Below are positions 1 to 43,937 of a stretch of DNA of 64,000 nt, in pieces; the stretch's first letter is position 1; each line of letters begins with the position of its first letter. Made by a program: the position numbers and the translations under genes. The DNA is taken from assembly GCF_031769215.1 (NCBI RefSeq), contig NW_026782006.1, positions 972,070 through 1,036,069 on the forward strand, in the 5' to 3' direction. This DNA comes from Ylistrum balloti. Its lineage: Eukaryota. The notes below the pieces were generated by a model, which saw only the letters and a list, made by a program, of their open reading frames with translations, did not search any database and was not told the origin of the DNA.

Positions 1-231
1 ATGGCAAGAAAAATACATCACTCTCTAGCTCTAAGGTCAGTTTCATATTGATATGAATACATATTGTGTATGTGCTAAAGTCAAAAGCCCCGATTTTGTT
101 ATCAAAGATCATTTGATGTAGTCGTGATGTAAATCACAAATCTGACACCAGAGATGGCAAACTCAGAAAGAATTTGATAGGTAGAAGTGAAAATAGGATA
201 GTAAAACAAAGACATCATTTAATTGTTTTAG

Positions 232-396
232 CACAGACATATAGTGCCTCGTGACACGGTTCTGGACTTCATTAATATGATGCTGAAAAGAGCGATGACT
301 GCACTAGCATGTGTGACGGAGGAGAATCTAGGGCATTGGTACTCACACACAGAGAGGGATGACATAAAACAGGACTACAGAGAAAAGGTCATCAAG
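232..396 (+). CDS. Gene A internal coding exon (alt. start 244). Peptide HRHIVPRDTVLDFINMMLKRAMTALACVTEENLGHWYSHTERDDIKQDYREKVIK
   Basis: Acceptor gttttag|c at 230-231 (alt. atatag| at 242-243). Donor ATCAAG|gtcagt at 397. Open frame. Ends phase 0, matching the next exon. Confidence 0.45.
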
Positions 397-889
397 GTCA
401 GTCTCATTGGCTTAAGGTCATTCTCGGATGTTTAAGATCAATCACAATGTGGTCAAGGTCTATACAAGACTTTACTTGGGTTTTTTTTTTATGTGAATGC
501 ATTATTTACAGACGTTTGAGGCAAACATAACCACTTTAGGATGTCATCACACTGTCATAATCTCTGACTGTCAACCGATTCCTATATTCCTTTATTTTCC
601 TATATTTTGGTTCAAAAACCTGTATTTTGAAAGAAATCCCATATTTCCTATATTTTCCTAGTTTATGAAAAATATTACTATAATTTTCAGGAAATTTGTT
701 GCTGATAAATGTAAAGATTGTAAATATTTCTTTGATACTGCTATTGGCTTCTTTTACAAGTTAGAGAATTCCTAAGTCTTTAACAGCATCACCAGCCACC
801 AGAAAATGATTCAGTGCATCTCTTTATCACCTGTATGGGCACCTTGCAAGGCAGTGCAACAGGATATTGGCCTTTTAGGTGCCCATTCA

Positions 890-890
<1 letters not shown>

Positions 891-921
<31 letters not shown>

Positions 922-930
922 GCTATACAG
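891..930. repeat. (GAT)n microsatellite, about 13 units
   Basis: gatgatgatgatgat…. It produces the spurious poly-His minus ORF 789-995. Confidence 0.9.
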
Positions 931-1453
931 CAGCTCTCTGCCTGGATTGTGATGCTGTTGAAGTGAATGGTTACTTTAACGTAGTTTTCAATCATTGATT
1001 ATTATAGAAACAGTAAGTGAAGGTAAAAATTGTTAGCATATATGCCTTTGAATGAAACAATTTTCGTTTGAAAAACTTATATGTCTTGCCTCAAAACTAG
1101 CAAAAAGCTCCAATATTTGTTGAAAAAATGTTCCTATATTCCTCCTATATTTTAAAGAAGATTTGGTTGACAGCCTGTAATCTGGACATGTTACCATGAC
1201 AATCCAGCAGGTGACATTATACTGAAAAGTGCTTTGCACTTGTGAAAAAAATATTCTGTCATACTCCTGAAATATATATGATAATAAATGGTATAGTTTT
1301 AATTAAATACTCTTCTTTATTATTGACCCTCACATGGTTTTATGACTTTATCAATTAATCTTAGGGTCTGAAAAAGTGAATTATTAAAAATTCACAAGCA
1401 TAGTATAGGATTCTTTATCAAAATACACCAGTGCACTTGTCTATACATTGTAG

Positions 1454-1559
1454 GCTGTCCCTGAGATTAAATCTCTGTTGGTGTGTTGGGACCATGCGAC
1501 AACACTTGGTTCCGAGGTCAAGACACAGGAGCTTGATAACGATGAAAGCAAAATCACAG
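1454..1559 (+). CDS. Gene A exon. Peptide AVPEIKSLLVCWDHATTLGSEVKTQELDNDESKIT
   Basis: Acceptor cattgtag|GCT. Donor CACAG|gtaaaag. Phase 0 in, phase 1 out, consistent with its neighbours. Confidence 0.55.
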
Positions 1560-1820
1560 GTAAAAGTTCTATAGGTCGTCAATAGTTATTTGTTGAAATC
1601 AAAGTGACGTCTTTCATAGTGTTGTCAATTAACAGTTGTTGTGGGAGTTTTTGTCAAAATTCAGGTGTAGTTAAAGTCCATTTGGCCACTTGTTTACATG
1701 ATGGAAGAATTTTTTTATCATTTGTGACATCATTAGATAAAATGTTGACTTGGTAGCTAATTTGATCCTTTTAGAAATAAATCATAATAATTGTTAAAAT
1801 GAAATGTGATCTTTCTGCAG

Positions 1821-2206
1821 ATGTGACCTTTGTGACCCCTCTTCAACACATGATCAAGATACAACAGACACTGTGCCTATATCAAGACCTTGTGCCCTCT
1901 GTGCTTGTGGATGACCCTGTTATTATCTATAAGCTCCTGGGTGGTGTCAAAAAATTGTCCCAGAAAACTGCCGTGAAAAATGATGAGCTAAAGATGGATA
2001 CAGATGACAATGGCAACCAGTCAGAAAAGAATGATACTAAAAGTGACCAATCAACAGAAGCTAATGATCACCATGACCAATCAGAAAAATCAGCTGAAAC
2101 GATTGACCAATCAGATTCCAAAACATTTGATCACATGCTTCCTCAGTTATACCTTCTCAAACTTTTATCTAGGACAGATGCACGCAAGCTGCCCTGGGGT
2201 AAAGAT
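1821..2206 (+). CDS. Gene A exon. Peptide DVTFVTPLQHMIKIQQTLCLYQDLVPSVLVDDPVIIYKLLGGVKKLSQKTAVKNDELKMDTDDNGNQSEKNDTKSDQSTEANDHHDQSEKSAETIDQSDSKTFDHMLPQLYLLKLLSRTDARKLPWGKD
   Basis: Acceptor ctttctgcag|AT. Donor GAT|gtatgt at 2207. The alternative donor G|gtaaag at 2199 breaks phase with the next exon. Phase 1 in, phase 0 out. Confidence 0.65.
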
Positions 2207-2807
2207 GTATGTATGACACATTTTAGGTTTTAACTTGTGTTGACAGCATTGTCAGTATATATGGAGGTTAGAGAAGATTAGAAATATTTATGATTACGAG
2301 GGTATTATTGTTCTGTCAGTAAAATCAAATTTAATGTAAACCAGTAATCCTTCATCACATAGTAGTTCAGGTCCCATTGTATGCTGTCATTTTCAAAACA
2401 ACTTGAAAGAGTGAAGTGTGATGTGTACTACCCTGTTCTGACATAAGATTTAGGTAATGAATGACATCACACACACTGTTTGCATTATGGCATAACAATA
2501 GAGACCGTATCTATGACTTGAAGTTTGAGGTGGAAATGTTTCTACAATATTTCCCTGAATAGTCACTGCTGTGATGAAATGGATCTTAAATTTGGTTCCG
2601 TATGATATATATAATTTATATTTGGTCACTAATCATTCAATATGGCTATTCTTATTGACTCTCTAGAAAAAAAATGTTATTGTGCTTAATGATCACTCGA
2701 GAAACTTGTATATCAATAAATTTGTTATTGTGATAATGTAGAATTTTAAGTTAACTAATTTAAGATGGTTGATTTTCGTTTGAAAAAAAATTTATGCATA
2801 TTTCTAG

Positions 2808-2915
2808 AGTCAAGATGGTCGCTCCCTGATGCACATATTATTAGAGATAATGATGGAGGTCAGTTCTATCTGCCAGAATGATTTGACACTCACAACAAGG
2901 GACCTTATATCCCAG
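2808..2915 (+). CDS. Gene A exon. Peptide SQDGRSLMHILLEIMMEVSSICQNDLTLTTRDLISQ
   Basis: Acceptor tttctag|AGT. Donor CCCAG|gtaaat. Phase 0 in and out. This donor motif is then copied about 9 times in the tandem array that follows. Confidence 0.65.
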
Positions 2916-3420
2916 GTAAATATTTACAGACCCATGTCACTACCAGGGACCTTATATCCCAGGTAAATATTTACAGACCCATGTCACTACCAGGGACCTT
3001 AATTCACAGGTAAATACATACATCTCCCAGGTAATTATTTACAGACCTGTGTCTCTACAAGGGACCTTAGATAACAGGTAAATACATACATCTCCCGGGT
3101 AATTATTTACAGACCTGTGTCTCTACAAGGAACCTTAGATAACAGGTAAATACATACATCTCCCAGGTAAATATTTACAGACCTGTGTCTCTACCAGGGA
3201 CCTTAGATAACAGGTAAATACATACATCTCCCAGGTAATTATTTACAGACCTGTGTCTCTACCAGGGACCTTATATCACAGGTAAATATTTACAGACTCA
3301 TGTCACTACCAGGGACCTTAATTCACAGGTAAATACATACAGACCCATGTCATTACCAGGGACTTTAATTCACATATTAATACATACATCTCCCAGGTAA
3401 ATATTTACAGACTCTTGTCG
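2899..3420. repeat. Tandem array of about 9 units of 47-65 bp. Each unit contains caggtaaata(t/c)…tttacag, a copy of the donor of exon 2808-2915
   Basis: Direct repeats gggaccttatatcccaggtaaatatttacagacccatgtcactaccag and a longer variant. Confidence 0.85.
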
Positions 3421-3805
3421 ATGCAAGTGGCCTTAATTAACTCCCAAGTAAAGATATTGTTTACAGACACATTGCACAGGTAAAGCATGGGTTAAGAAAA
3501 TACCCTCTTTTCTGTCAATAGTTTCATATTATGTCCTTAAATTTCTCTGTGTTGAGGTATAGTACCAAGCTTTTTTGTGTAGGAAAGGATGTACGCTATC
3601 ACTTCTCTCGTAGGATTTCTTTTTCTGACAGCCTTCCCCTTACAGGGTAGTGGTGTTATAAGATTTTAGCTAGGTAGAAAGGCAGACTCTCTAAACAAAT
3701 ACTGTGTAGGAGATCAGGTATAACAAACACTGTAAAAATCATAGTATTTTACAGCCATATTTTGTGTATATATTTTTTATTACAATATGTTTTCCTTTCT
3801 AACAG

Positions 3806-4079
3806 TTGCTGTTTAGCACCGGTTTATTTGAGTACCACCAGGGAGAGCTACAGTTATGGATCAGACAGTTCAGTGTGTCCATGAAGAACCTCACTACTAA
3901 TGAAGACAAGGTCGAAGTTATCAAACTATTGGCTCATGTTTTTACTACCTTCATCAAGAACCCCTATCCCTATGTTGACAAGGTCAGTGACTTCGTATCA
4001 GAGGCCATCACCATGGAGACAACAGGGGGAAGTAACTTAGACAATATTAGTGTTGGAACTCATGACAGCATTATTGATG
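3806..4079 (+). CDS. Gene A exon. Peptide LLFSTGLFEYHQGELQLWIRQFSVSMKNLTTNEDKVEVIKLLAHVFTTFIKNPYPYVDKVSDFVSEAITMETTGGSNLDNISVGTHDSIID
   Basis: Acceptor tttctaacag|TTG. Donor GATG|gtaaat. Phase 0 in, phase 1 out. Confidence 0.7.
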
Positions 4080-4415
4080 GTAAATATCATTATGGCCAAT
4101 ATACCTTTTCTTCCATATTTTGACCTTGTCAAATCTTACCTGGAGGTCATCTTCCTCAGTCAGTACTCCATTCATGTTTTTCAAGCTTGGTAGTCTTTAT
4201 TATAATGACATGAATTTGTATTTTCTCAGTGGTATTTTGATTCATTGATTATAACCTGATGTTGTATATAGAAAGTAGTTTTCACATTTTTTCCATCCCC
4301 TAGTATATCCACATTTTGAGAACATGATTAACAACCATTCACCTGGGAATAATGTAATACAATTAATGCATTGTGTACTAAGTTCATGTTAAGAGAACCT
4401 AACTACTTTTTTAAG

Positions 4416-4500
4416 GAATACTGGACATGGATGAGGATATGGAGCCAGAGGATACCACTGATTCTGTTACTACAGCAGATGTCAATGAGGATGCCTTTAG
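4416..4500 (+). CDS. Gene A exon. Acidic peptide GILDMDEDMEPEDTTDSVTTADVNEDAF
   Basis: Acceptor ttttttaag|GA. Donor TTTAG|gtagtc. The ORF-track frame 4371-4634 is a different, non-protein-like frame. Phase 1 in, phase 2 out. Confidence 0.6.
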
Positions 4501-4965
4501 GTAGTCAAATTCCATTTGTCAATGAAATTAAGAATATACCTCCACCATTTTCTGGGTTAGGTAATCGTGTCAATCTGGTCCTTGTCTTGTACCACACCAT
4601 CTCATCTTGTCTCAAGTTAATGATATCATTGTAATGAATAGTCCAAGCACTTGTGCATGTCATAATTTTAACTTCATTAGATTTTCAAGATGGCTGTTAG
4701 TGACCATTTTGAATTGCAATATTTAAAATTTCTAACCCCTCATCTGAAGAAAAGGAATCTCCTTGTTTCTTAAGGGATTTTGATCTAGCATTGTCCAAAA
4801 AGATCAGTTATGACTACATCCAAATGGATTCCGGCTTCATGGTTATCAGTTGAAGGTACTGTTTAGAGAAATTTGTTAAATGTTGATATTTTTATGCTTA
4901 GAAGTAGGGACTTTCATTGTTAGCTGTTCTGAGTACAGTCAAAGTTAACATGTTATACATTTTAA

Positions 4966-5925
4966 TAGAAATGAATCAAGCATGTATATTGTGATACTTT
5001 GTAATAGAAAGGAATCAAGCTTGTATATTGTGATACTTTGTAATAGAAAGGAATCAAGCTTGTATATTGTGACACTTTGTAATAGAAAGGAATCAAGCTT
5101 GTATATTGTGACACTTTTGTAATAAAGGAATCAAGCTTGTATATTGTGATACTTTTGTAATAAAGGAATCAAGCTTGTATATTGTGATACTTTTGTAATA
5201 AAGGAATCAAGCTTGTATATTGTGTTACTTTGTAATAGAAAGGAATCAAGCTTGTATATTGTGACACTTTTGTAATAAAGGAATCAAGCTTGTATATTGT
5301 GATACTTTGTAATAAAGGAATCAAGCTTGTATATTGTGATACTATTTTAATAAAGGAATCAAGCTTGTATATTGTGATACTTTTGTAATAAAGGAATCAA
5401 GCTTGTATATTGTGATACTTTTGTAATAAAGGAATCAAGCTTGTATATTGTGATACTTTGTAATAGAAAGGAATCAAGCTTGTATATTGTGACACTTTTG
5501 TAATAAAGGAATCAAGCTTGTATATTGTGATACTTTGTAATAGAAAGGAATCAAGCTTGTATATTGTGACACTTTTGTAATAAAGGAATCAAGCTTGTAT
5601 ATTGTGATACTTTGTAATAAAGGAATCAAGCTTGTATATTGTGATACTTTTGTAATAAAGGAATCAAGCTTGTATATTGTGATACTTTTGTAATAAATGA
5701 ATCAAGCATGTATATTGTGATACTTTTGTAATAAAGGAATAAAGCTTGTATATTGTGATACTTTTGTAATAAAGGAATCAAGCTTGTATATTGTGATACT
5801 TTGTAATAGAAAGGAATCAAGCTTGTATATTGTGACACTTTTGTAATAAAGGAATCAAGCTTGTATATTGTGATACTTTGTAATAAAGGAATCAAGCTTG
5901 TATATTGTGATACTTTGTAATGAAG
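4966..5925. repeat. Minisatellite, 38-39 bp unit, about 25 copies (aaaggaatcaagcttgtatattgtgatacttttgtaata)
   Basis: Perfect or near-perfect direct repeats. Intronic. Confidence 0.9.
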
Positions 5926-6020
5926 GAATCTTTTTGTCCTTTCTACATACGTTATGTAAATTTATAAGCTCACATATCTAATGTGCGGTAAATTACTTTT
6001 TATTTTTCCTTTCTTTGCAG

Positions 6021-6088
6021 GTTTCCCTACAGCCCAATGATGGTGATTGCTCTGGAGCATCTGACAAGGACAAAAGATTGGGCACTGA
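6021..6088 (+). CDS. Gene A exon. Peptide RFPYSPMMVIALEHLTRTKDWAL
   Basis: Acceptor ttctttgcag|G. Donor CTGA|gtgagt at 6089. The GT at 6093 would break downstream phase. The exon end and donor are copied into the following 46-bp array. Confidence 0.6.
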
Positions 6089-7225
6089 GTGAGTATAATT
6101 GGTGATGTGACGAGGAAAAATGATTAGCCACTAAGTGAGTATAATTGGTGATGTGAGTAGGACAAAAGATTGGCCACTAAGTGAGTATAATTGGTGATGT
6201 GAGTAGGACAAATGCTCGGCCACTGAGTGAGTATAACTGGTGATGTGATGAGGACAAAAGATTGGCACTAAGCGAGTATATCTAGTGATGTGAGTAGGAC
6301 AAATGATTGGCCACTAAGTGAGTATAATTGGTGATGTGAGTAGGACAAATGCTTGGCCACTGAGTGAGTATAATTGGTGATGTGATAAGGACAAAAGATT
6401 GGCCACTAAGTGAGTATAATTGGTGATGTGATGAGGACAAAAGATTGGCACTAAGTGAGTATATCTAGTGATGTGAGTAGGACAAAGGATTGGGCATTGA
6501 GTGAGTATAATTGGTGATGTGACGAGGAAAAACGATTAGCCACTAAGTGAGTATAATTGGTGATGTGAGTAGGACAAATGCTTGGCCACTGAGTGAGTAT
6601 GATTGGTGATGTGATGAGGACAAAAGATTGGCCACTAAGTGAGTATATCTAGTGATGTGAGTAGGACAAAGGATTGGGCACTGAGTGAGTATAATTAGTG
6701 ATGTGATGAGGACAAAAGATTGGCCACTAAGCGAGTATATCTAGTGATGTGAGTAGGACAAAGGATTGGGCACTGAGTGAGTATAACTGGTGATGTGATG
6801 AGGACAAAAGATTGGCACTAAGCGAGTATATCTAGTGATGTGAGTAGGACAAATGCTTGGCCACTGAGTGAGTATAATTGGTGATGTGATGAGGACAAAA
6901 GATTGGCCACTAAGTGAGTATATCTGGTGATGTGAGTAGGACAAAGGATTGGGCACTGAGTGAGTATAACTGGTGATGTGAGTAGGACAAATGATTGGCC
7001 ACTAAGTGAGTATAATTGGTGATGTGATGAGGACAAAAGATTGGCACTAAGCGAGTATATCTAGTGATGTGAGTAGGACAAAGGATTGGGCACTGAGTGG
7101 GTATAATTGGTGATGTGATGAGGACAAAAGATTGGCCACTAAGTGAGTATATCTAGTGATGTGAGGACAAAGGATTGGGCACTGAGTGAGTATAATTGGT
7201 GATGTGATGAGGACAAAAGACATAT
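6060..7225. repeat. Minisatellite, 46 bp unit, about 25 copies. The unit contains the exon-5 end plus donor (…ggcactgagtgagtataattggtgatgtga…)
   Basis: Direct repeats. Begins inside exon 6021-6088. Confidence 0.9.
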
Positions 7226-7436
7226 ACATCCGTACAAGTCACTAATACTTAAAAAATTTGTAACCTTCTGAGATGATATTGCCACCTACAGTTGTATAAT
7301 AGCCCAGTGGGGAATCTATGACCAATCTATACTTCAAACTTAACAATACTTATAACAGTTTTCAAAACTATCCTAGCTCTGATGATGGATGATAAAATTT
7401 GAGTTAATTTAAGTTTAATTTATTTACCTGTTTATA

Positions 7437-7680
7437 TCTAATTAATAGGTGTAACAAACTTTGTGTCTATATCTAATTAATAGGTGTAACAAACTTTGTG
7501 TCTATATCTAATTAATAGGTGTAACAAACTTTGTGTCTATATCTAATTAATAGGTGTAACAAACTTTGTGTCTATATCTAATTAATAGGTGTAACAAACT
7601 TTGTGTCTATATCTAATTAATAGGTGTAACAAACTTTGTGTCTGTATCTAATTAATAGGTGTAACAAACTTTGTGTCTGG
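7437..7680. repeat. 35-bp tandem repeat of 7 copies (atctaattaataggtgtaacaaactttgtgtctat). Each copy duplicates the acceptor plus the first 22 nt of exon 7659-7810
   Basis: Perfect direct repeats. Confidence 0.9.
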
Positions 7681-7810
7681 TATTGTCCTGGATCTTTTCC
7701 ACTCCCAAATACAACCTCTCCCTTTGGTGTGTATGCTGAATGCTTGTCATGGAGACCAGCTGGACAGTGGAGTCACCAGTTACATATTGTCATGGTTACC
7801 ATCACAAAAG
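7659..7810 (+). CDS. Gene A exon. Peptide SVTNFVSGIVLDLFHSQIQPLPLVCMLNACHGDQLDSGVTSYILSWLPSQK
   Basis: Acceptor aattaatag|GT is the last of 7 identical acceptor-bearing 35-bp units, so an upstream copy could be used instead. Donor CAAAAG|gtatct. Phase 1 in, phase 0 out. The ORF-track frame 7636-7818 is the wrong frame. Confidence 0.55.
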
Positions 7811-8514
7811 GTATCTAAATGATCAGAAAGGAATGTTTAGAACAAAATTCATTGTTTCTTACAGAGGTCATGGATAATTAGCTTTAGTACTTCAGGTAGT
7901 TAGTAAATATAGCTATATTCCTTGAAGTCCTGCATTTCGATTATGAAAGACCCTGATTAATTACATTTTTCATACCTGCTATAATTGATGTATCCTTACA
8001 AATAAACGTCATTCCTCACACAATCACACCACTGTCACACTCAAAATTAGTCCACAATGGTTACATGTTAGTTGATATCTTTCTGCAAACCATACAATTT
8101 TTGTCTTTTTATGATTACTATTGGAGAAGACATTATTTTGGAGAAAGTTCAATACAATTGTCTCTCCTTTTCATCTTGAATCCATATTGCACTAAAATTT
8201 GTGGTTTAGTTTTATGAGGTAGATGCCATCCTGTATTACACACAGATAAATATCTGTTTTGTATTGTAGTTTGTCTTATAGTGATATGTTTTAGTTTCAT
8301 CAAAATTATGCTTTCAAGACACAGTCAATATTCTTGGCATTTAGCTGTTGACAGAGGTGTAAGTGGGTGTTTGGAATGATAGCTGTAGGTAAACATTGTA
8401 TAGGATCAGATTTAGAAATATTGCTAGGTTGAACCTTTTTACTATGACTGATATAAATGGTGCGACTGCAGATCACTGAGATCACAACCTCACAAGAATT
8501 ATGGTTTATTGTAG

Positions 8515-8724
8515 CTCAAGAAGACAAAAATACCTAGTGAAGGTGTACAGATGTTATCCAGTAGAACAATGATGCATGGCTTCATTAGGTTGTGTGCTAC
8601 AACAGAAGAGGTCAAGGTCGCAGAATTATCAAAGAGTCTGGATGACTTGGATGTGGAAGTCATGCTTCTTGTTGCCAAGCAACTGCTGCTGTATTTTGTT
8701 ACTCTTGAGAAAACTTGCAGCAAG
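8515..8724 (+). CDS. Gene A exon. Peptide LKKTKIPSEGVQMLSSRTMMHGFIRLCATTEEVKVAELSKSLDDLDVEVMLLVAKQLLLYFVTLEKTCSK
   Basis: Acceptor ttattgtag|CTC. Donor GCAAG|gtatgc. Phase 0 in and out. Confidence 0.7.
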
Positions 8725-8933
8725 GTATGCTGATTAATCTGTTAAGAATTCTAGAAATTATCGATTGTTGTTACGGTCAATTCTTAAATTGTTAAACATT
8801 GAATGTATTAGCACACACATAACAGTACTCATTGTCGAAGAGAAAATATAACTCAAATATGAAGAAACTATTATAAGATGACAAATTTTTCCATCTTTTT
8901 TCCTCTGATACAACTAATGATAATTTTTTTCAG

Positions 8934-9906
8934 ATGGGCACAAAATCCAGTGATGCTTTAAAAGTACTTTTAGAAACCCTCATTGCATTAATACACTCAA
9001 GTACAACAAGACAAGCCACAGTTTCAAAAGAATGTGATGATCACTTGACTGAAAATGATTTCAATCTTCTGTCTGACCTTGGTCAGAACTCAAGGACAGA
9101 GCCTCTGATTGAAGTGCTACGAACAGTTTTTACCCACCCGGTGCTGCTCCAATGGTTTCTGTATAATCCAGCTGATAAGCTAGTGGATCCTGCTTACCCG
9201 GCTCTGACAGCCAGTTGTCTTCGACATCTTGTCACATCTCACTTGAGCAAGCTCTTCTTGTCCATTGCAGAACAGGATCTCAGTGATTTGGCACTAGTTC
9301 TCAAAAGATATGTTGAGAAAATTACAAATTTCATGGACTCCATCAAAAAGGGAAAGGAACCAAGTTCCACCTACCAAGAATTGGTTGGATTGATCCAGAA
9401 TAATTTAGGATTATTTACCAAATTCTTAGAGAAAGAGACACAATTTTCACTCCTACACACAGTCCTCTATCTACCAAAATCTTTGCTGATTGGCTTGTCA
9501 TCAGAGTTGTCACCCTTGGGAAATTTCCTCATGAATCTGCTAGAGGAAATGTGTAATAATCTGACCACTCACCACCACAGCCTCGCACTTCTACATATCA
9601 GTGATTTTAAAGTGTTATTAGACATGATGTGCAACATAGACTCAACAGTTCTTGACATTAATTGTCAAAATCTTCTGCAAATATTTCCTCATTTCTCTGT
9701 TGCAATTACTAAGTCAACCATGTGGCGCCTGCTGAATAGCTCCTCTAGTGTGAAACAAGGGATTGCCATGATAGTGGTTAAACATAATTCAGTAGCTAGG
9801 TCCTTTCTAGAGGACTGGATTATGGAAACAAATATTGACGGGGAACAGATGTTTGGGAGCATTCCTTTACTGAACTTGTACCTACAGTGTGTTCTGAACA
9901 GAAAAA
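8934..9906 (+). CDS. Gene A long exon (973 nt, 324 codons). Helical, leucine-rich: MGTKSSDALKVLLETLIALIHSS...LYLQCVLNRK
   Basis: Acceptor ttttttcag|ATG. Donor AGAAAAA|gtgagt. 324-codon open frame. Phase 0 in, phase 1 out. Confidence 0.8.
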
Positions 9907-10157
9907 GTGAGTAATATTGAATGTATGAATGAGACAGAGTGTCCAGATTGGGTTATTGACAACTGACAGAGTGTCCAGATTGGGTTATTGAGTACTGACA
10001 GATATGCTATCAAGAATTACAAAACATTATTATGGTTTTATTATTTCTCGTCTTGTGTGTGTCACTAATGTAAATCGTAATTTGACAGACATATGTTCAA
10101 AAACAACCCAGTTCTAAGAGGTTAAAATGATCTTTTGTTTATTAAATTGTTTTCCAG

Positions 10158-10301
10158 CTGAAGGTGGGGAAGCTGTCCACAAAATCTCTAAAGACTATAA
10201 TGATTGCCTTGGAGACTTGATGGCTACATCTAACCTCCACCCAGAGTTTACAGGACATGTGTGTAAAATGCTTATCTTGCTGTGTAAGCTCCAAGTTATT
10301 G
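10158..10301 (+). CDS. Gene A exon. Peptide TEGGEAVHKISKDYNDCLGDLMATSNLHPEFTGHVCKMLILLCKLQVI
   Basis: Acceptor tgttttccag|CT. Donor TTATTG|gtaagt. Phase 1 in, phase 1 out. Confidence 0.7.
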
Positions 10302-10699
10302 GTAAGTCTGCAATAAGTTCAATGAATTAAGGAATATTTGCTTTAGAAAAGAAAACTACAGCTTTTGACTTGGAGACTTTTTGGATGGGGGACTTCTGAG
10401 ATAATTTGAAAAATGTAGTAATAAACAGAACCAGTAACCCCAGTGTCAGTATTAGGGGAATGGTAATAGTCTTTAGGTTAAACAAAAGTCCTTTAAGATG
10501 CAGTCAGATGCTGTTGATTGTTTTTGATTTAGTTATAATTGGATTCAGAATTTTGTATTTACACTTAAGATTAACAGGTTATAGGTATTCATCACAGAAG
10601 CAGAGAGTGGCCATTCTGATGTTAAAACAAGGAGATGTACTGATTATTAGGGATACATCATATATAAGTCAAGTCATTAGATTCTGCTTTGTTTTTTAG

Positions 10700-10956
10700 A
10701 CAAGGAAAAACAGAAAAATGTTTGTCAGAACATTACCAGTGCTATAAAGACCAAAAAGGTAGTCCAAAAGGATCACATCCAGGTGCTTATCTACCTCTCC
10801 TCTGCTCCACTAGGGGACAGCTCAGAGCCTGTCATTTCTGAACCACAAGTGTACAACGTGTGTCGACGATGTTTAATGTATTGTCTACAGAAAAAGGAGA
10901 GACTGGATGGAGACCTCGTTGAATACCTTCTCCATTTTCTTTCTAAAACCACTCAG
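10700..10956 (+). CDS. Gene A exon. Peptide DKEKQKNVCQNITSAIKTKKVVQKDHIQVLIYLSSAPLGDSSEPVISEPQVYNVCRRCLMYCLQKKERLDGDLVEYLLHFLSKTTQ
   Basis: Acceptor gttttttag|AC. Donor ACTCAG|gtaaga. Phase 1 in, phase 0 out. Confidence 0.75.
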
Positions 10957-11883
10957 GTAAGAGTTCATGTAGAAACTGAATTTATCTGAAGAAATGAATC
11001 TCAGTTCTCAGGATGGGACCATTCAAGGTTGGAATTCAGGAATTCCATCCTGAGGGTTAATCATTTCTGTTTCTGAGCTTATGTTATGGTGCAGCATTTG
11101 ACATTTGGTTTCATCAACTTTCCTTTGAACAACTTTTTCTGAAGAACCAAAAGACAAAGTTGTGATGTTTGGTTTGTAGCTTTCTTTGATGGAGTCTGAC
11201 AATGTTTGAAAAAAAAAAAATAAAAAAGGTCTTTGACCTACTTTCAAGGTCAAAACGGTCAAAGATGATGTTGACCTACCTTGGTCCCGGGGCTCAAATA
11301 TGTCAAAACCTTAAAACAACCTAAAATACTGAAATGCCTAGAGGCATGATATTGGACTGATAGTTTCCTTCAAAGGCGCCAAATAATTTTTGAGAATTAA
11401 AGTTCGCCTACTAGTAGCTGCTCTCTGAAAGGGGGCACATTAGAGGCTAGGAAAGGTTGCTCCACACCATGATTTACCCTGGCATTGCTTAAGGAATGAC
11501 TAGTACCATGATTCATCATGATAATATGTTGACGAGAATAGAGTTCACTTATATTTTCCATCTAGTGTCGATAAATGCATTTCATTGTTTAGATTTCAAA
11601 AGTAACAGTAAAATATAGAACTTTTCAATGTTAACAACAGAACAGATAGAAAAGTACATACAGAAATCATATTTTACCTTTTTTGTAGTGTGTGTGTAGC
11701 TTGTCTCAACCCTAATGTAAGACATCTGGTCATGTTGGCACACAGCTGTCTATGGATAGAGAAGTGCTTTATTATTTAAAAGGAAACTGAAGTTTTCTAC
11801 CACAGGTCATGTTCAGAAATAAAAGTGAGTAGCCACAAGGTATCTAGACTAATGAATTTAAACTTATTTGTGATTTTACACAG

Positions 11884-12124
11884 GATGTGATTGAACAAGT
11901 GAAGCCCTCTGAACTCCGTAAAGACTTCTCCTCCTTTGTGAAAGCTTGTTTACGATCACAGTACGCCTGTGCCAGTACTCATAAGATCCTCAACACTCTG
12001 ATGAAGACTGTGTACTCAAATGGAATGACTCTTGATCTTACTCCTAACATGGTCTTTGATATGGTGCTCAGTCATTCCATGTTTTTGTCCATCATACTGA
12101 ACGAGGAAGGATCAGAGGTCAAAG
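11884..12124 (+). CDS. Gene A exon. Peptide DVIEQVKPSELRKDFSSFVKACLRSQYACASTHKILNTLMKTVYSNGMTLDLTPNMVFDMVLSHSMFLSIILNEEGSEVK
   Basis: Acceptor ttttacacag|GAT. Donor GTCAAAG|gtaaac. Phase 0 in, phase 1 out. Confidence 0.75.
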
Positions 12125-12579
12125 GTAAACAGACAGAGTTGGACAATGATTTGGTACAATATATTTACCTGAGTTGTATTCAGACAGTATGATGACAACT
12201 GGCATGCATTAGTTCCTTTTTGTCTTTTTTGTTTTTTTTTATTATTGATATTTTGTTAAAATTAATCATAAGAGTGAAGACACAGGAAAACCTTACAATA
12301 TTAGATATTTCCAGGAATCATTTTGATTTTACAGTGGATGTTTTTTAATGTTTGATAGATGTTTAGTAAAATACAACAAAACACTGTCAGTAATTTTATA
12401 TGAGTTCCATAAAATAACCAACAATTATAAGGTTTGAATCGGAATGTTGTAGAGTGTTTGGTGGATCTGTTGTTGATGCTGGTTGAAATCTGCCCGAACT
12501 GCTGTACCTCCAGCCACATAGGCATATACCTTGGTGCTTACAGTGCAACTCTGTCACAAACAGGTATGTACTTATAATG

Positions 12580-13975
12580 AGGTTGTCCGTAAATATGATG
12601 ATGTAGTCAATACATATGATGATGATGTTGTCAATATAGATGATGATATTGTCAATATAGATGATGCTTTTGCTACAGGACCAAATCTGTTGATTGATTT
12701 GTGTGTCAATACTTATGACATGTGTCACTACTTTATTATATGTGTCAATACTTACAACTTGTGTCACTTCTTTATTATGTGGGTCAATACTTATGACATG
12801 TGTCACTACTTTATTGTATGTGTCAATATTTTTGACGTGTGTCACTACTTTATTATGTGTGTCACTACTTACGGCATGTGTCACTACTTTATTACATGTG
12901 TCAATAATTACAACATGTGTCACTACTTTATTGTATGTGTCACTACTTTATTATGTGTGTCACTACTTACGGCATGTGTCACTACCTTATTATGTGTGTC
13001 AATACTTATGGCATGTGTCACTACTTTATTGTATGTGTCAATAATTACAACATGTGTCATTACTTTATTACATGTGTCAATAATAACGACATGTGTCACT
13101 ACTTAATTACATGTGTCACTACTTTATAGCATGTGTCAAAAATAACGACATGTGTCACTACTTAATGAAATGTGTAAATACTTACAACTTGTGTCACTAC
13201 TTTATTACGTGGATCAATACTTACGACATGTATCACTACTTTATTGTATGTGTCAATACTTTATTACGTGTGTCACTACTTACGGCATGTGTCACTAGTT
13301 TATTATGTGTGTCAATAATTACAACATGTGTCACTACTTAAATGTATGTGTCACTACTTTATTATGTGTGTCACTACTTATGGCATGTGTCAATACTTAT
13401 GGCATGTGTCACTACTTTATTATATGTGTCAATAATTACAACATGTGTCATTACTTTATTACATGTGTCAATAATAACGACATGTGTCACTACTTAATTA
13501 CATGTGTCACTACTTTATAGCATGTGTCAAAAATAACGACATGTGTCACTACTTAATTACATGTGTCAATACATACAACTTGTGTCACTACTTTATTACG
13601 TGGGTCAATATTTACGACATGTATCACTACTTTATTGTATGTGTCAATACTTTATTACGTGTGTCACTACTTACGGCATGTGTCACTAGTTTATTACATG
13701 TGTCAATAATTACGACATGTGTCACTACTTAATTACATGTGTCACTACTTTATAGCATGTGTCAATAATTATGACATGTGTCACTACTCAATTACATGTG
13801 TCAATACTTACGACATGTGTCACTACTTAATTACATGTGTCACTACTTTATAGCATGTGTCAAAAATAACACTACTTTATAGCATGTGTCAATAATTATG
13901 ACATGTGTCACTACTCAATTACATGTGTCAATACTTACGACATGTGTCACTACTTTATCACGTGTCATTGTCTGT
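12580..13975. repeat. Complex satellite: an approximately 39-bp sub-unit (tgtgtcactactttatta[ct]atgtgtcaata…) arranged in a higher-order repeat of about 391 bp
   Basis: Identical ORF-track peptides recur at 12917/13305 and 13093/13484, giving a period of 388-391. Confidence 0.8.
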
Positions 13976-14066
13976 TTATATTTAATACTATGTTGATACA
14001 TGTGATGTGTGTCAATACAGATGATGTGTGTCAACAGTTATATAAATAAGTGTCTTTGGTTTTCAG

Positions 14067-14130
14067 ACCAGAAGTTGTTGAGACTTCTCCATCTGTATGA
14101 GAACTATGAGGTCTCTATGAAAGAGTACAA
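14067..14130 (+). CDS. Gene A short exon. Peptide DQKLLRLLHLYENYEVSMKEY
   Basis: Acceptor ggttttcag|AC. Donor GTACAA|gtaagt. Phase 1 in, phase 2 out. Confidence 0.6.
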
Positions 14131-15026
14131 GTAAGTATTGTACTGACATATATGTGTATATGAAGGAGTGTTAATACACATAAAAACCATGATACAGTCA
14201 CTTGTATACATTTGATCACCTCAGTGTGTGATATTGCACTGTTCAGGGCTATACATTCATGTTTACTGGCTATGTATAAAATGTCTGGTGGGGTAATACA
14301 GCCTTGCATTAATATGAATTAAGATGTAGTTATGATACTTTTTTCAGAAATACTTCAGAAAAATTCAAATACATCAATGTGTTTGTTAAGTGATGGTTTG
14401 ATTTTGAAAAGATGCGTAATGAAAACAAATATGTATTTAAATTTTTGGCTCATAACAAATCAGAACTCCATTTCATTGTTCATGTCCAAAGTTATAGGAA
14501 TGATCTATCCTTGGGGTCACCAGAATGTATTAAACCCCTTAGCAGGGCCTGGGGTTTTACCAATTTATGTGACCCTGGAATTGAAAAGCACTGCCCTATA
14601 ACCATAAAGTTTAGATGGATCCCATGTTTGTCTGTCCCTATGCATCCTGCCCTGTCCTGTTGAGTCCTGTCCCATTCAGAATCAATGACATATCTTGAGA
14701 ACCAGTCTGCAGATTTGGTCTATATTTACTCAGTAATATACCAACTTCAAGTTTTTCACCAATCATATTAAGATGGTCATTGGTAAAGGTTAAAAGGTGA
14801 AAGGTCACATTTGACTTCTGCAAAGTTATCAAACATTCATACTTGAATGCATCATAACAATCATGTCTTACAAACCAGGTTGTGTTTACAAAAAGTCTCA
14901 CTGCTTTTACAATTTAGAAAAAAAATCTTATCTGGTTTATGACTGCATTCAGAATATGAACAGAGATGGTGTAGTTTCTCTCTCTTTTTTTTTCACTGCT
15001 CACTGTCACCACAATAATTTCATTAG

Positions 15027-15189
15027 GCCTTACCTGTGGGGACCAAAGGCAACTGAGCAGCACACTATTAGGAAGTCCATGGGGTCATCGCTATGGAAAC
15101 AGCCATCCACAGATCAGGTGTTAGAGTACATTGACCGTGGCCGGCTAGAGAGGTCCATTTTAAAATTTCCATTGCTGAGGAAACTCCAG
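15027..15189 (+). CDS. Gene A exon. Peptide KPYLWGPKATEQHTIRKSMGSSLWKQPSTDQVLEYIDRGRLERSILKFPLLRKLQ
   Basis: Acceptor tttcattag|G. Donor CTCCAG|gtatga. Phase 2 in, phase 0 out. Confidence 0.7.
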
Positions 15190-15560
15190 GTATGAACTGA
15201 TTAATCCTTGTCTATAACTAAATTATAGTAGTGCTTTGGCATTCTGACTTTGATGATTCAATGTGACATCAAAGTAGAAACCAGCGACATGTCCATCTAA
15301 TGATTTTCTTGTAAATATATCTGTCTCATTTAAGAAAGACAAAATCTGAATTGCCATACATTTTTTTATGCTTGTTATTATGTTTCATAGTCTCAATCTA
15401 TAACAGTGTTGATGATAACACGTCCTTACCTGTGTATACATTCCATTTTTCTTGGTTAAAATATTGATTTCAGTCAGAGACTTTGTAAATTGTTGTTTTT
15501 GGTAATTTCTTACTTCTGTCTACTGTTTGTGAAGTTTTGTGTATTGTTTATGTTGACTAG

Positions 15561-15657
15561 CCGGGCTTGATACAGGATTTGTCTGTGTATGGAGTCACTG
15601 ATGACCTCTATGACCCCTGCTTTATTCTGCCATTGTTCAGTAATCTATTGTCTCCAG
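15561..15657 (+). CDS. Gene A exon. Peptide PGLIQDLSVYGVTDDLYDPCFILPLFSNLLSP
   Basis: Acceptor tgtttatgttgactag|CCG, with an in-frame TAG immediately upstream. Donor TCTCCAG|gtaagg. Phase 0 in, phase 1 out. Confidence 0.6.
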
Positions 15658-15786
15658 GTAAGGTCACAGTTATTTCATATCATTTCACAGTGATGTTTCC
15701 TTTAAAAAGATATCTGTTGTGCTTCATATGAAGTCAATTGAGACGGTAGAATAAATGATAAAGTGCCTTTATTTTGTTCATCATAG

Positions 15787-16059
15787 AATCCTTTGTGGAC
15801 TGCCGGAAGTTTGCAGAGACTTTATGTCTAGGATACACCATTGCTGCTTTGAGTTGCCATGACAATGGTGTCAGAGGTGTTGCCTACCATGTACTAGCAC
15901 GATACCTTCACCATCTGGAGGGTGCACGTTTCCCAGAACAACAGCAAGTGTTGTATCTGGTTAGCCTACTGAGAGACAGTGTGACACGCCCAAACACCAA
16001 ACTAGCCTGTATCATAACAGTGTTTCTGGCAAGGATGGTGCCACTCATGTTCCTGCATG
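15787..16059 (+). CDS. Gene A exon. Peptide ESFVDCRKFAETLCLGYTIAALSCHDNGVRGVAYHVLARYLHHLEGARFPEQQQVLYLVSLLRDSVTRPNTKLACIITVFLARMVPLMFLH
   Basis: Acceptor ttcatcatag|AA. Donor CATG|gtaggt. Phase 1 in, phase 1 out. Confidence 0.75.
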
Positions 16060-16316
16060 GTAGGTCAAAGTTCAGAAGTTTCTAAATGGCCTTTTTAAAT
16101 GTTCTCTACTTTATGAACTAAAGAGTTAGAAATAAAAGCTGGGAGTTAAAAGATCATGTGATTGATGACAGTCGAAGGGCAAATTTGACAGGTCAAGTTT
16201 TTTCAACTTCAAAGTTTATATTCTAAATCTTGAATTTATGCAAGGTGAGATGTTTACAGGTGAGCAGTTCTATATGAAAGGAGTTGAGAAATGATGATTT
16301 CCAATGTTTACTACAG

Positions 16317-16423
16317 ACGACCACATGTACAAGGTGATGAACTACTTCCTGCTCTTGAAACCTGCCATGGACATCACCACAGTGCCAGAGTTCTATAAAC
16401 TGTTCAACAGCTCAGCCTTTGAG
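16317..16423 (+). CDS. Gene A exon. Peptide DDHMYKVMNYFLLLKPAMDITTVPEFYKLFNSSAFE
   Basis: Acceptor tttactacag|AC. Donor TTTGAG|gtaaaa. Phase 1 in, phase 0 out. Confidence 0.7.
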
Positions 16424-16680
16424 GTAAAAGAACATTGCCAGTGATTTACGAAGAACAGATGTAAATAATGATAAAAAATTATGTCATTATCAGATCATTT
16501 CTGAACATTGAATTCAGTCATTTTTTAAAGGACTTTCATTTCTATATTTTGTCAATACCACCAGGGCTTAACCTGGGATCTCTGTATTGGAGTAAATTAG
16601 AATTCCTTTCCTATGTACAACATAACACAATATGGCAGAATAGCTGTGAAGTAAATAAATTTGTATTTTTGTTTTCACAG

Positions 16681-16824
16681 TTTAATGTAGAAAGATCTTG
16701 GATTTTGGATTTATGTAGAGATGGTTTGAGGGAGACTCTGGACTACAAGCTGTTTGAGTCTCGCTATGTCTTCAAGCTTCTGTTAAGTTTTCATGACTCT
16801 GGTATCAGCGATGCCTCGACTCAG
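16681..16824 (+). CDS. Gene A exon. Peptide FNVERSWILDLCRDGLRETLDYKLFESRYVFKLLLSFHDSGISDASTQ
   Basis: Acceptor gttttcacag|TTT. Donor ACTCAG|gtaagg. Phase 0 in and out. Confidence 0.7.
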
Positions 16825-16937
16825 GTAAGGTCTTCTCAACACCTTTACTTTCTAAAAACCTACTCTTAATTAATCTTGTCATATGCAGTAACATAAGGAG
16901 ATCAACTATGGTAATTTGAAACATTTTTATTGAGCAG

Positions 16938-17044
16938 TTACAAGTATTGGACATTCTGAAGTCAGCCTCTCTCCAAAGGACGGTGACCTTTTACCTTGTG
17001 AAGCAGCACGGAATGTTGAGTTGGCTGTCTGGCATGATTAGCAG
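16938..17044 (+). CDS. Gene A exon. Peptide LQVLDILKSASLQRTVTFYLVKQHGMLSWLSGMIS
   Basis: Acceptor ttattgagcag|TTA. Donor TAGCAG|gtatcc. Phase 0 in, phase 2 out. Confidence 0.7.
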
Positions 17045-17269
17045 GTATCCTATTTACTTTAATATAAACATCACCCTTATAACTCCAAATGAATCAAAAA
17101 AAATAATTCTTAAAGATATGAAATATGGAATTCTTTCAAAAAATGAGAATTAAATGTTGATGAAATACCTATATCTCATTCAGTCCTTTAGAATCTGGAT
17201 GGTTTTTTTTTCTTTCCTTTTTTTCTGCCGAAATAGGGATTATCATCTAAACTAAAATACGAAACACAC

Positions 17270-17465
17270 TTCACCCAACCTCACACACTCCACCCATTTT
17301 CATACACTCCACCTATCCTCTACCCATCCTCACACACTCAGCCCATCCTCACACACTCTGCCCATCCTCATACACTCTGCCCATCCTCACACACTCCGCC
17401 CATCCTCGCACACTCCGCCCATCCTCACACACTCCATCCATCCTCATACACTCCATCCATCCTCA
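17270..17465. repeat. 19-bp minisatellite of about 10 copies (gcccatcctcacacactcc)
   Basis: Direct repeats in an intron. Confidence 0.85.
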
Positions 17466-17544
17466 CAATTCTTTAATAATTCACACTTAACAGGCCTTGT
17501 ATACTTCTGCACTAGGATTATTCAGCATTTTATTACTTTCACAG

Positions 17545-17736
17545 AAATATTGGTGGTAGCAAACTGGTCATGGTGTGTGATATACTCTATGGCTTGTGGT
17601 TTTCTATGGTACGCCACCGATCTATCAGGGGAAACAACTATGAAATTAACAAGGAAGGACAAGTCACCAAATGTTTGCCACTGGCCATATCCAGGGAGGT
17701 GTTGACATGTCTCCTGTCCCTAGTGAAGTGCTTTGG
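17545..17736 (+). CDS. Gene A exon. Peptide RNIGGSKLVMVCDILYGLWFSMVRHRSIRGNNYEINKEGQVTKCLPLAISREVLTCLLSLVKCF
   Basis: Acceptor tactttcacag|A. Donor TTTGG|gtaagt. Phase 2 in, phase 2 out. Confidence 0.7.
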
Positions 17737-18238
17737 GTAAGTGTAGATATATAATGTAAGTAATTATAAAAGAAAAACAAAAATGTTAGTGTATTCTTGC
17801 CTTATACTGTTTTGCAGTTAATTCAGAGTATAAGAAATTGTTCTATTATGGCTCTAAAACATAAAAAAATGTCAGAAAAAAAAGACTTACAAATTCCCCT
17901 GTTAGAAAGTCTCTTTTATTGTATTGAATCATGACCAATTTTATAAGAGATTTCATAAACATAAACTTTATTTATTTTACAATAATTACAAATCAAGTTA
18001 TTTCAAATTATACTTATCACTCTTGTTGGCCTGGATGTAAGCACATGATAGGTCATATTGTGGGAGGAAGCTGGATTACCCTGGGAAAACCCACATGGTC
18101 GGACAGGTGACCCTTTACCTTTCCATGTCCATTCCGGGAATGGAACCCCCGGATGGCAAGGTGAAAGGCAAGTGCATTACCACTGTGCCACCAAACCACA
18201 GATTTCATAGTCTGACATAAAACATTGACTTTTTCTAG

Positions 18239-19029
18239 GGAAGAAACAGACGATGAAGTATACCAAAAATGCTTGGAGACCCTTGTGTCAGTGCTGAATC
18301 ACCTGAAGGAAACAGTGGTGCACCTACAAGACAAGGGACATGTTAGAGTTACACCTCTCACTACACACGATGTCTGTCACATCCTAGTCAACTCGGCAAG
18401 AGTCATCAACAACAAAGACATTGAAACAACCTGTACACATGCCTTTAAACTCTTGAATGTAAAGAACAGAAGCATGGGGACAGCAAGACAAGATGGGAAA
18501 CACAAAAAGGATGCAAAAGTCATTATTGAAAAAGAAGTGACATCAGAAAAGACTGACAGACAATTAGAAGAAAGTGAAACAGATAAAAAGATTAGTTTGT
18601 TAAGTGTAGACTTGTTGTTACACTGGAATCCAGATCTTCTTGATGATCCAGGTAGTGATGTTGTTCAGGTCACATGTACTGTTGCCATGGCAGTGATTTC
18701 CTTCTTTATAACTAGTCTTCCATATATGAGTTATGAGACAATGGATAGCATTGTGACTTGGATACACCTACATTTTTACAAAGGATCTCTGGTCAAACAT
18801 TTAAGGGAAACAGATCAGAAGGAATTGGTGAGATGTCTCCTACAGATTTATAATGCACTGTACAACATCACTGGTGACAAGATTTATATAGACTCTGATT
18901 CTTGTGTTAGACCTGATTTGAATCATACTTTGATAAATTTGAATGAGGTGATGTTCAACATTGCTGGTCATGAGAAGGGAGAGATGTTGGCAGTATGGAG
19001 AGAATTCTTCTGCAAATGGAACTCAACAG
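18239..19029 (+). CDS. Gene A long exon (791 nt). GEETDDEVYQKCLETLVSVLNHLKETVVHLQDKGHVRV...EMLAVWREFFCKWNST
   Basis: Acceptor ctttttctag|G. Donor CAACAG|gtacag at 19030. Phase 2 in, phase 1 out, which matches the terminal exon. The ORF-track read-through to 19178 is intronic. Confidence 0.75.
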
Positions 19030-19309
19030 GTACAGTCATGTTGGCTAATTATTCTTATTATTGGTTCCATGTACAATCCTCCTCTGGTCTCACAGCCATG
19101 AATTTTATCCATTTTCCTCTTCAGTCATATGAAGTATGTTTCTTTAAGCATTATTCATGTTTGTATGTCCCAGTATAATTGTTCTATTTTTAATTTTGTT
19201 CTGTGATTCCAGGTACATTGTTTAAGCCTAGGCTTTTTAATGTTATCAACAGTAAATGTCTGTCTGAAGTTTGAACTGAAGAATTGTTCCATTGGTTTCC
19301 TTTCTGTAG

Positions 19310-19452
19310 ACATGTCTTCAGAAGATTCCTCTGTTGCGGGAAGGAGATATTTCCTGGGATGGCCCTCGCCCTTGGACAACCTTAACGACCAGAAGAAGGC
19401 CTTCGATAGCTCAAAGAAAAAACTAAAGAAGAAGAAAGCATCCAAGCTCTAA
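19310..19452 (+). CDS. Gene A terminal coding exon. DMSSEDSSVAGRRYFLGWPSPLDNLNDQKKAFDSSKKKLKKKKASKL, then stop TAA at 19450-19452
   Basis: Acceptor tttctgtag|AC. Phase 1 in. Lysine-rich basic C-terminus. In-frame TAA. Confidence 0.75.
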
Positions 19453-24700: not shown

Positions 24701-25099
24701 TCTGGAATGGTTCAAGGATGTATAACGTACGGGCAGGTAGCTGTAAATTTTAATGCCCATTTGGTATTTCTTGATATGAACAAAATCAGGCATGTTGACA
24801 GGTCTGACAGACCTTGAAAGACTAAAGATAGAGAAATAGACTTCTCTGTGTAGACAGACAAGGTGAACCAAAGTTACTACTGCTAACAGACTTAGATAGT
24901 GGAACGTCAATGCGTTAACAACAGGCGACCAGTCCTCTGCTGACAGTCACAAGAAAGCAAAACAAGACTGCAATGGACACGTGATCACCGGACATGGAGT
25001 ATAAGGTCTTAGCGAAAAGTTCACTGATTAGATGGAAACCACTTTTTACTTAGTCTGACAGACGTGTTTGGAGACTAAGAAATAAGGCACACCATCACA

Positions 25100-41700: not shown

Positions 41701-41760
41701 TGGACAGATGTCTAGATATAAAACAACACTGACTTGTCAGTATGGACAGATGTCTAGAAT
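35760..41760. repeat. About 6 kb satellite with a 42-bp unit and about 140 copies (ggacagatgtctagatataaaacaacactgacttgtcagtat). It fills the intron between gene B exons
   Basis: Period 42. Two unit variants (gatgtctag and gatatatag) occur in blocks. Confidence 0.95.
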
Positions 41761-41783
41761 CCGACCATTCCTTATGAACTTAC

Positions 41784-43900: not shown

Positions 43901-43937
43901 CCCGTGACGCCTTGGATGTTATATGTCTTCTTCTTAC

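Follow-up and report, generated by a model that had tools for sequence, protein, structure and literature searches.

Tandem repeats that span an exon-intron boundary have been described in amphioxus, where they are called mirages, and in human F7 and some other genes. We describe here three such arrays in a single gene of the bivalve Ylistrum balloti. The stretch analysed as a whole (the window) comprises 64,000 nucleotides of contig NW_026782006.1, positions 972,070 to 1,036,069. The gene, which occupies its plus strand from about 230 to 19450, is URB1/NPA1, encoding nucleolar pre-ribosomal-associated protein 1. Two of the arrays span donor sites and the third spans an acceptor site, and in each the unit attached to the exon holds the authentic junction. 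The arrays are an already described phenomenon of the mirage/F7 kind, here documented in molluscs and recurring across species. We consider it likely that they are near-neutral by-products, that is mirage-type minisatellites grown from URB1 junctions, and not a splicing device.

Amphioxus mirages occur at 5' and at 3' boundaries, with examples in Adh3, the globin genes BflGb6 and BflGb9, troponin C and PGBD5. Splicing is reported to be undisturbed, and it has been suggested that new introns could arise from such repeats (PMC3087553, PMC3902484). The name was coined in cephalochordates; an early account is that of Cañestro et al. 2002, to which PMC3087553 refers. In intron 7 of human F7, the first monomer of a 37-bp variable number tandem repeat (VNTR) spans the exon 7 boundary, and splicing uses just the one furthest upstream among 5-9 identical donors (Borensztajn et al., PMC1557585). 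This case was used to argue for 5'-to-3' scanning in donor choice. According to the same source, the authentic site and the two nearest pseudo-sites are used in IFI6 (6-16), which has 25 pseudo-sites, and likewise in the minisatellite of CBS intron 13; in the LMNB2 and PDGF minisatellites, only the authentic site is used. A further relevant scheme, the Rogers model, derives intron gain from tandem duplication of an AGGT-containing segment, at least as outlined in PMC4974935 and in PMC2812944, which cites Zhuo et al. 2007. A literature search retrieved no report of junction-spanning minisatellites in molluscs.

The three arrays were called by Tandem Repeats Finder (TRF), run over the whole window, at 2890-3419 (array 1), 6067-7220 (array 2) and 7429-7678 (array 3) of the plus strand. 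These borders match those of a preliminary description of the same DNA (2899-3420, 6060-7225 and 7437-7680). Array 1 (TRF periods 47, 68 and 115, 87-93% matches) could be dissected into 9 units, each either 47 or 68 nt long; in the longer form 21 nt inside the 47-nt unit are duplicated, and this duplication bears a second donor. It spans the donor CAG/GTAAAT at 2915/2916 (a slash marks the junction) and overlaps the exon by 26 nt. Twelve copies of CAGGTAA[AT]T were counted in it, 10 of them identical to the authentic CAG/GTAAAT, in addition to one CGGGTAATT and 8 copies of GTAA[AT]TATTTACAG. Beyond the authentic junction there are 9 more identical copies of CAGGTAAAT. Besides the donor, the units of array 1 bear the acceptor-like motif TTTACAG.

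Array 2 (46 bp x 25.2, 84-89% matches) consists of 25 units of 45-46 nt, among which 3-4 subtypes can be distinguished; there are also higher-order periods of 183 and 229 nt. The array extends across the donor TGA/GTGAGT at 6088/6089 and shares 22 nt with the exon. The authentic donor TGA/GTGAGT recurs identically in 10 of the 25 units, while 20 fit T[GA]A/GTGAGT and 4 are GC variants. There are 12 extra GAT/GTGAGT motifs, the GTGAGT hexamers total 32, and TGAGTGAGT is found in 9 more identical copies beyond the authentic junction. Array 3 (35 bp x 7.1, 99% matches) has 7 units of 35 nt and spans the acceptor aattaatag/GTGTAAC at 7658/7659, with a 20-nt exon overlap. Its 7 identical 29-mers, AATTAATAG/GTGTAACAAACTTTGTGTCT, represent 6 pseudo-acceptors and the authentic acceptor, which is the last copy. 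It had previously been stated that every repeat copy carries a splice-site motif; this holds for most copies but not for all, as the counts indicate. Nor are the arrays in consecutive introns, as had been thought: arrays 2 and 3 form the opposite ends of one intron (6089-7658), whose sole non-repeated part is a 208-nt core (7221-7428) and which would have measured about 247 nt before expansion, and array 1 lies three introns upstream. Copy identity is unequal among the arrays, being highest in array 3 and lowest in array 2, which points to a difference in age and to continuing turnover. Ongoing turnover is also suggested, within this single haplotype, by the higher-order structure and by the 99% identical copies.

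The likeness to mirages is close. Head-to-tail minisatellite units include the exon-intron boundary (47/68 bp x 9, 46 bp x 25 and 35 bp x 7), the terminal unit is the authentic junction, with exon overlaps of 26, 22 and 20 nt, and both donor and acceptor boundaries are affected. Many units keep the AG/GT, the genome is that of a minisatellite-rich invertebrate, and unit sizes overlap (10-72 bp in Adh3, 35-68 bp here). The host is a bivalve mollusc instead of a cephalochordate, a difference that concerns the name and not the structure. A further difference is the presence in URB1 of three arrays in one gene, two of them at both ends of one intron. In amphioxus, undisturbed splicing (by RT-PCR) and length instability were demonstrated, and in F7, upstream-only donor use was proven experimentally; for the URB1 arrays, the comparison covers the sequence. 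Arrays 1 and 2 nevertheless resemble the F7-type VNTR in that the first monomer spans the boundary and the downstream monomers repeat an identical donor, and the 25 units of array 2 recall the 25 pseudo-sites of IFI6. The F7 monomer holds just 4 exon nt, in contrast to 20-26 nt in URB1, and array 3 is an acceptor-side counterpart of a type not described in PMC1557585. As in the Rogers model, tandem duplication has reiterated splice signals, and array 1 units carry a donor together with the acceptor-like TTTACAG. Unlike in that model, no new intron has resulted: the introns concerned are ancient, conserved in position across molluscs, and merely lengthened.

The identity of the gene follows from two Pfam NopRA1 matches to its product (6.9e-16 and 5.4e-11) and from its nearest orthologue, Pecten maximus XP_033740037.1, annotated as 'nucleolar pre-ribosomal-associated protein 1-like', which is 69% identical in amino acids to the gene model over 1841 residues. 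The URB1 proteins of the remaining molluscs are about 24-31% identical to the window model, so that the gene is that of a scallop-like bivalve and not of amphioxus, which the mirage literature might have suggested. The Pecten orthologue was reached with a profile, built from the contiguous NopRA1 exon and two Logan hits and run against a representative protein library, which recovered full-length URB1s. Word-indexed protein searches with a 337-aa exon and with a spliced composite returned no close orthologue, and neither did a search of the PDB.

Exon borders were derived in several ways. An ab initio model, obtained by a small dynamic programming routine that combined generic splice matrices with codon log-odds from the long open reading frames (ORFs) as training set, independently yielded the five exons that concern us here, termed a to e. 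In Pecten maximus, an exact exon map of the URB1 locus (L001 in the locus coordinates used below) gives orthologous exons of the same lengths, 108, 274, 85, 68 and 152 nt. Exon a (2808-2915, 108 nt, phase 0-0, ending ...EVSSICQNDLTLTTRDLISQ) corresponds to Pecten 10757-10864, and its last 26 nt are the first, partial unit of array 1. Exons b (3806-4079, 274 nt) and c (4416-4500, 85 nt, encoding an acidic stretch) correspond to 11529-11802 and 12439-12523. Exon d (6021-6088, 68 nt, RFPYSPMMVIALEHLTRTKDWAL), whose last 22 nt are the first unit of array 2, corresponds to 17770-17837, and exon e (7659-7810, 152 nt), whose first 20 nt are the end of array 3, to 18507-18658. All five are on the plus strand and are also covered by the Pecten protein alignment, which has no gaps across any of the three array-bearing junctions. 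The aligned stretches read ...EVSS(I or L)CQ..LT.TTRDLISQ/LLFSTG... and ...AFR/FPYSPM.VIALEHLT.T...../SV.N..SGIVLDLF.... For exons d and e, frame logic leads to the same borders, since the donor at 6089 and the acceptor AG at 7657/8 are the sole credible pair that preserves the ORF.

The borders of exons a, d and e proposed in the preliminary description are thus right, and the gapless alignment and the identical lengths of the orthologous exons are decisive. Because of this identity of length, the donor at 2916 is confirmed as well. An equally strong in-frame donor, GAG/GTCAGT at 2859, would leave array 1 wholly intronic. It was ruled out because the orthologue keeps EVSSLCQTPLTITTRDLISQ and because the codon-usage log-odds of 2859-2915 are typical of coding sequence. 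Elsewhere in the gene, the Pecten-guided map drops three spurious exons (890-921, 16215-16259 and 17342-17572) and adds a missed 111-nt exon at 12453-12563. The first of the three, which the ab initio model had miscalled as a poly-Met exon, is a perfect intronic (GAT)10.7 microsatellite.

The pattern of the window by itself gives no direction to the events. The exon end is in register with the array at each junction, and a pre-existing array could have had the last 22-26 or first 20 nt of the adjacent exon captured from it by activation of a splice site within the unit. In Pecten, however, homologous single-copy sequence is found at all three junctions, for instance TATATCCCAG/gtaaat in the window against TATCTCCCAG/gtaaag at array 1, and tatctaattaatag/GTGTAAC against tatctactcaacag/GTGTGAA at array 3. 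TRF detected no array at the three orthologous junctions of the Pecten URB1 locus, where the exons are equal in length and have homologous ends. Moreover, in a URB1 alignment with mapped introns from seven species (the window, Pecten, Mactra, Potamilus, Haliotis, Gigantopelta and Patella), bivalves and gastropods agree in the positions and phases of their introns; each of the seven has an intron of identical phase at alignment columns 753 and 902. Given the single-copy junctions of Pecten and this conservation from bivalves to gastropods, the exons are the older element and the arrays recent copies of the junctions, specific to their lineage. The comparison of orthologous introns suggested in the preliminary description thus places the arrays after the exons, and its claim that the arrays were seeded at real splice junctions is borne out. 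A small relic fits this order of events: the copies of array 1 read TCACTAC like the Pecten exon, and the window exon now reads TCACAAC, a synonymous change.

One further feature could speak for repeats that preceded the exons. The array-embedded ends of exons d and e (6067-6088 and 7659-7678, alignment columns about 895-910) are the least conserved residues locally, TKDWAL/SVTNFV as compared with TENMPP/SVKNYM in Pecten. Throughout the seven-species alignment this stretch is a variable loop, and therefore array-driven exchange is not needed to explain the divergence. The repeat-first scenario, in our opinion barely credible, is largely refuted.

The arrays also differ between species. Arrays that occupy orthologous introns in different species showed no sequence homology. 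A large array lies in the c/d intron both in the window (4969-5930, plus strand, 38 bp x 25) and in Pecten (12553-17678, 42 bp x 122), and the units are unrelated (shuffle p=0.8). The window array begins 468 nt past the donor and stops 90 nt short of the acceptor, and it is not junction-derived (TRF, flank test p=0.06/0.41). About one third of its units contain the acceptor-like TTTGTAATAG.

The course of events may be pictured as follows. On three separate occasions, a segment of 35-47 bp that included an ancient exon-intron boundary would have been tandemly duplicated, probably via replication slippage or unequal exchange between short direct repeats. Expansion on the intron side would then have led to 9, 25 and 7 copies. 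The exon-adjoining copy, which is the first at a donor and the last at an acceptor, would stay intact, and therefore the mRNA could still be made as before. The other copies would be intronic pseudo-splice sites, yielding transcripts with premature stops if used.

The preliminary description took the arrays to be clearly disposed to alternative 5' or 3' splice-site choice or to the extension of exons. Reiterated sites might indeed constitute a functional module for alternative 5' or 3' choice, exon extension or regulated unproductive splicing of URB1, since dozens of them are identical or nearly so to the authentic sites. The latter are of ordinary strength among the sites of this gene, as scored with a rough position-weight matrix, and the use of the first two pseudo-sites in IFI6 and CBS (PMC1557585) provides a precedent. 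In the confirmed frame, however, every repeat-internal donor or acceptor introduces a premature stop. Internal sites of array 1 lead to a stop after ...LPGTLYPR, or to a frameshift in the case of the donor at 2963, those of array 2 to a stop after ...LSEYNW and those of array 3 to a stop after ...NFVSISN. Exon extension cannot be productive for this reason, and the use of pseudo-sites would be noise or unproductive splicing. Furthermore, the arrays are missing from the Pecten orthologue, array sizes and units vary between species, and only the authentic site is used in F7 and in the amphioxus cases. The annotated Pecten, Haliotis and Patella models likewise use the exon-proximal copy at their own junction-spanning arrays. 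A setup for alternative splicing is therefore not supported, and we hold a functional module to be improbable; we infer that the exon-proximal sites are used and that the arrays are close to neutral.

Some observations weigh against arrays that are mere by-products placed by chance. The only stop-free alternatives are two 33-nt modules of array 1 in phase 0-0, at 2930-2962 (THVTTRDLISQ) and 2977-3009 (THVTTRDLNSQ), each flanked by TTTACAG/ and /GTAAAT. Being in frame, they favour a splicing module to some extent and could in principle serve as candidate micro-exons; for the second, the upstream intron would measure 61 nt. Another point is that the unit of array 1 weakly resembles a 34-bp unit found elsewhere in the window (shuffle p 0.0004 for the single pair, 0.054 after Bonferroni correction). 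Finally, junction-spanning arrays are about twice as frequent as expected from uniform seeding and recur at orthologous donors, so that pure chance placement may be an incomplete account.

The second of these points raises the possibility that array 1 belongs to a satellite family that is dispersed, perhaps carried by a transposon, and that also includes the 34-bp arrays at 57061, 59612 and 62534; array 1 would then simply have landed beside the exon. The whole units can be aligned as TACCAGG..TCCCAGGTAA..TACAG, with the shuffle probabilities just given. Yet the blocks in common are mostly splice-consensus-like, and nhmmer, searching within the 64-kb window, gave no match. In addition, the exonic part of the unit (TTRDLISQ) belongs to coding sequence that is conserved in Pecten, and the first unit is continuous with it. 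Apart from this weak match, the units of the 17 distinct arrays of the window are mutually unrelated, and therefore the arrays arose in place. We regard membership of a dispersed family, as judged within this 64-kb window, as very improbable.

The 34-bp arrays themselves are part of a larger structure. The segment 56130-64000 is a tandem macro-repeat of about 2.5-2.9 kb, with at least 3 copies at 94-98% identity, and each copy holds a 34-bp array of 11, 22 or 24 units; the unit carries a perfect donor consensus, CAG/GTAAGT, and it is this unit that is weakly like that of array 1.

The excess of junction-spanning arrays was evaluated in the URB1 loci of seven molluscs, a sample of one gene, against a null model in which a unit-sized segment is seeded uniformly over the collapsed introns and the junction-overlapping positions. 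The thresholds and the orthology test were chosen after seeing the data; the window was selected because of these arrays, and totals were computed without it as well. In the window alone, 3/8 arrays span a junction against 0.98 expected (P=0.06). Over all loci, the figures are 11/100 against 5.78 (P=0.026), or 8 against 2.89 at donors only (P=0.008). Without the window, they become 8 against 4.55 (P=0.08) for all junctions and 6 against 2.28 (P=0.025) for donors.

The Pecten locus, which has junction-spanning arrays of its own at junctions other than the three of the window, serves as an independent test. A conservative count gives 4/11 arrays against 1.5 expected (P=0.05), and all 4 are at donors, against 0.76 expected (P=0.005). 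They are located on L001 at 18633-18726 (47 bp x 2, donor of the exon e orthologue), 22501-22577 (38 bp x 2, donor 22508), 24802-27760 (40 bp x 74, donor 24828) and 27952-28075 (63 bp x 2, donor 27963). At the same locus, an array derived from a donor and since decayed follows 7743, and another array abuts the acceptor at 23953. Haliotis asinina (L004) has one array at an acceptor (20633-20891, 63 bp x 4) and two at donors (32947-33248, 38 bp x 8; 36029-36972, 79 bp x 12), and Patella vulgata (L006) has one at an acceptor (22243-22439, 64 bp x 3). In Potamilus (0/44), Mactra (0/9) and Gigantopelta (0/8), no array at the URB1 locus spans a junction.

Both donor-spanning arrays of Haliotis are at junctions orthologous to those of Pecten (alignment columns 1514 and 1635; hypergeometric P=0.012 in a post hoc test). 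The donors in common, at which the two species have unrelated unit boundaries, follow a 257/260-nt exon and the 111-nt exon ...LGAYSATLSQT/DQ. The junction of array 2 provides a case shared by the window species and Haliotis, in which a 17-bp array, GTCAGTGACAGATGTGT x about 21 (L004 25845-26197), comes after the exon d orthologue, starting at intron position +1 and repeating the intronic donor half GTCAGT. Several arrays that do not span junctions begin close behind donors. In the window, these are 9933-10002 (+26 after 9906) and 12577-12666 (+13 after 12563) and, on the minus strand, 35754-41758 (+25, donor near 41783) and 42422-43899 (+38, donor near 43937). The Pecten arrays at 12553 and 20485 begin +29 and +30 past donors.

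These data have led us to consider that 5' splice sites, and to a lesser degree 3' splice sites, are preferred starting points of tandem duplication, as a mutational hot-spot rule and not by chance. The polymerase or the spliceosome might pause at the junction, or the DNA might be damaged there. Alternatively, an exon end kept constant by selection may serve as a permanent master copy for the regrowth of arrays. Under such a rule, mollusc 5' junctions would be seeded preferentially and recurrently, and the same ancient donor would have been hit independently in scallops and abalone. The donor excess over the seven loci and in Pecten, the orthologous positions in Haliotis, the GTCAGT array at the exon d donor and the further arrays that begin 0-30 nt after donors all point in this direction. 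Conversely, the probability for all junctions rises once the window is left out, three species have no junction-spanning array at all, a single gene was sampled with tests picked post hoc, and donor-like motifs are not generally enriched in the array units of the window (3/17 against about 2.2 expected). The donor-sided excess is modest and not an established rule, and a seeding preference is a tentative idea that we find rather doubtful. The earlier proposal of slippage nucleating at exon-intron boundaries is for the same reasons weakly supported.

Whatever their cause, junction-spanning minisatellites are a natural series of identical splice sites. The URB1 locus, with donor arrays of 9 and 25 units and an acceptor array of 7 copies that shares its intron with one of them, would suit tests of splice-site selection in an invertebrate. 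Should the donor-side excess be true genome-wide, it would inform on how minisatellites arise and how introns lengthen. The arrays are also a warning for annotation, as in tandem-repeat-rich scallop genomes they generate many equally good candidate junctions.

Tandem repeats are abundant in the window as a whole, 19 TRF arrays covering 31% of it. They are the largest repeat class in scallop genomes, amounting to 21.7% in Amusium pleuronectes (PMC10225492). When the window was scanned for Rfam families and tRNAs, there were no matches. Two candidates for additional junction-derived arrays were rejected. The array at 26068-27231, in another gene, was considered as a fourth junction-spanning one; the frame-compatible acceptor is about 70 nt off and the flank homology is not significant. 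The arrays at 12577-12666 and 12702-13965 were considered as decayed derivatives of the donor at 12563, to which they have no similarity.

The largest of the minus-strand arrays mentioned above, 35754-41758, extends over 6 kb with 143 copies of a 42-bp unit; every unit folds into a pair of short hairpins (ACTGAC..GTCAGT and GGACA..TGTCT). The array takes up the greater part of an intron in a gene on the minus strand, and the exon of this gene at 41784-42222 codes for a segment rich in serine and acidic residues. Also on the minus strand, a single-exon ORF of 547 aa (45975-47618) carries TPR repeats (Pfam TPR_12, 4e-08), with no identical protein on record. Upstream of it, a 158-aa ORF (55195-55671, minus strand) ends in ...FVGRENQIKDF, and from their sequences the two look like an NB-ARC/TPR-type immune-receptor-like gene.

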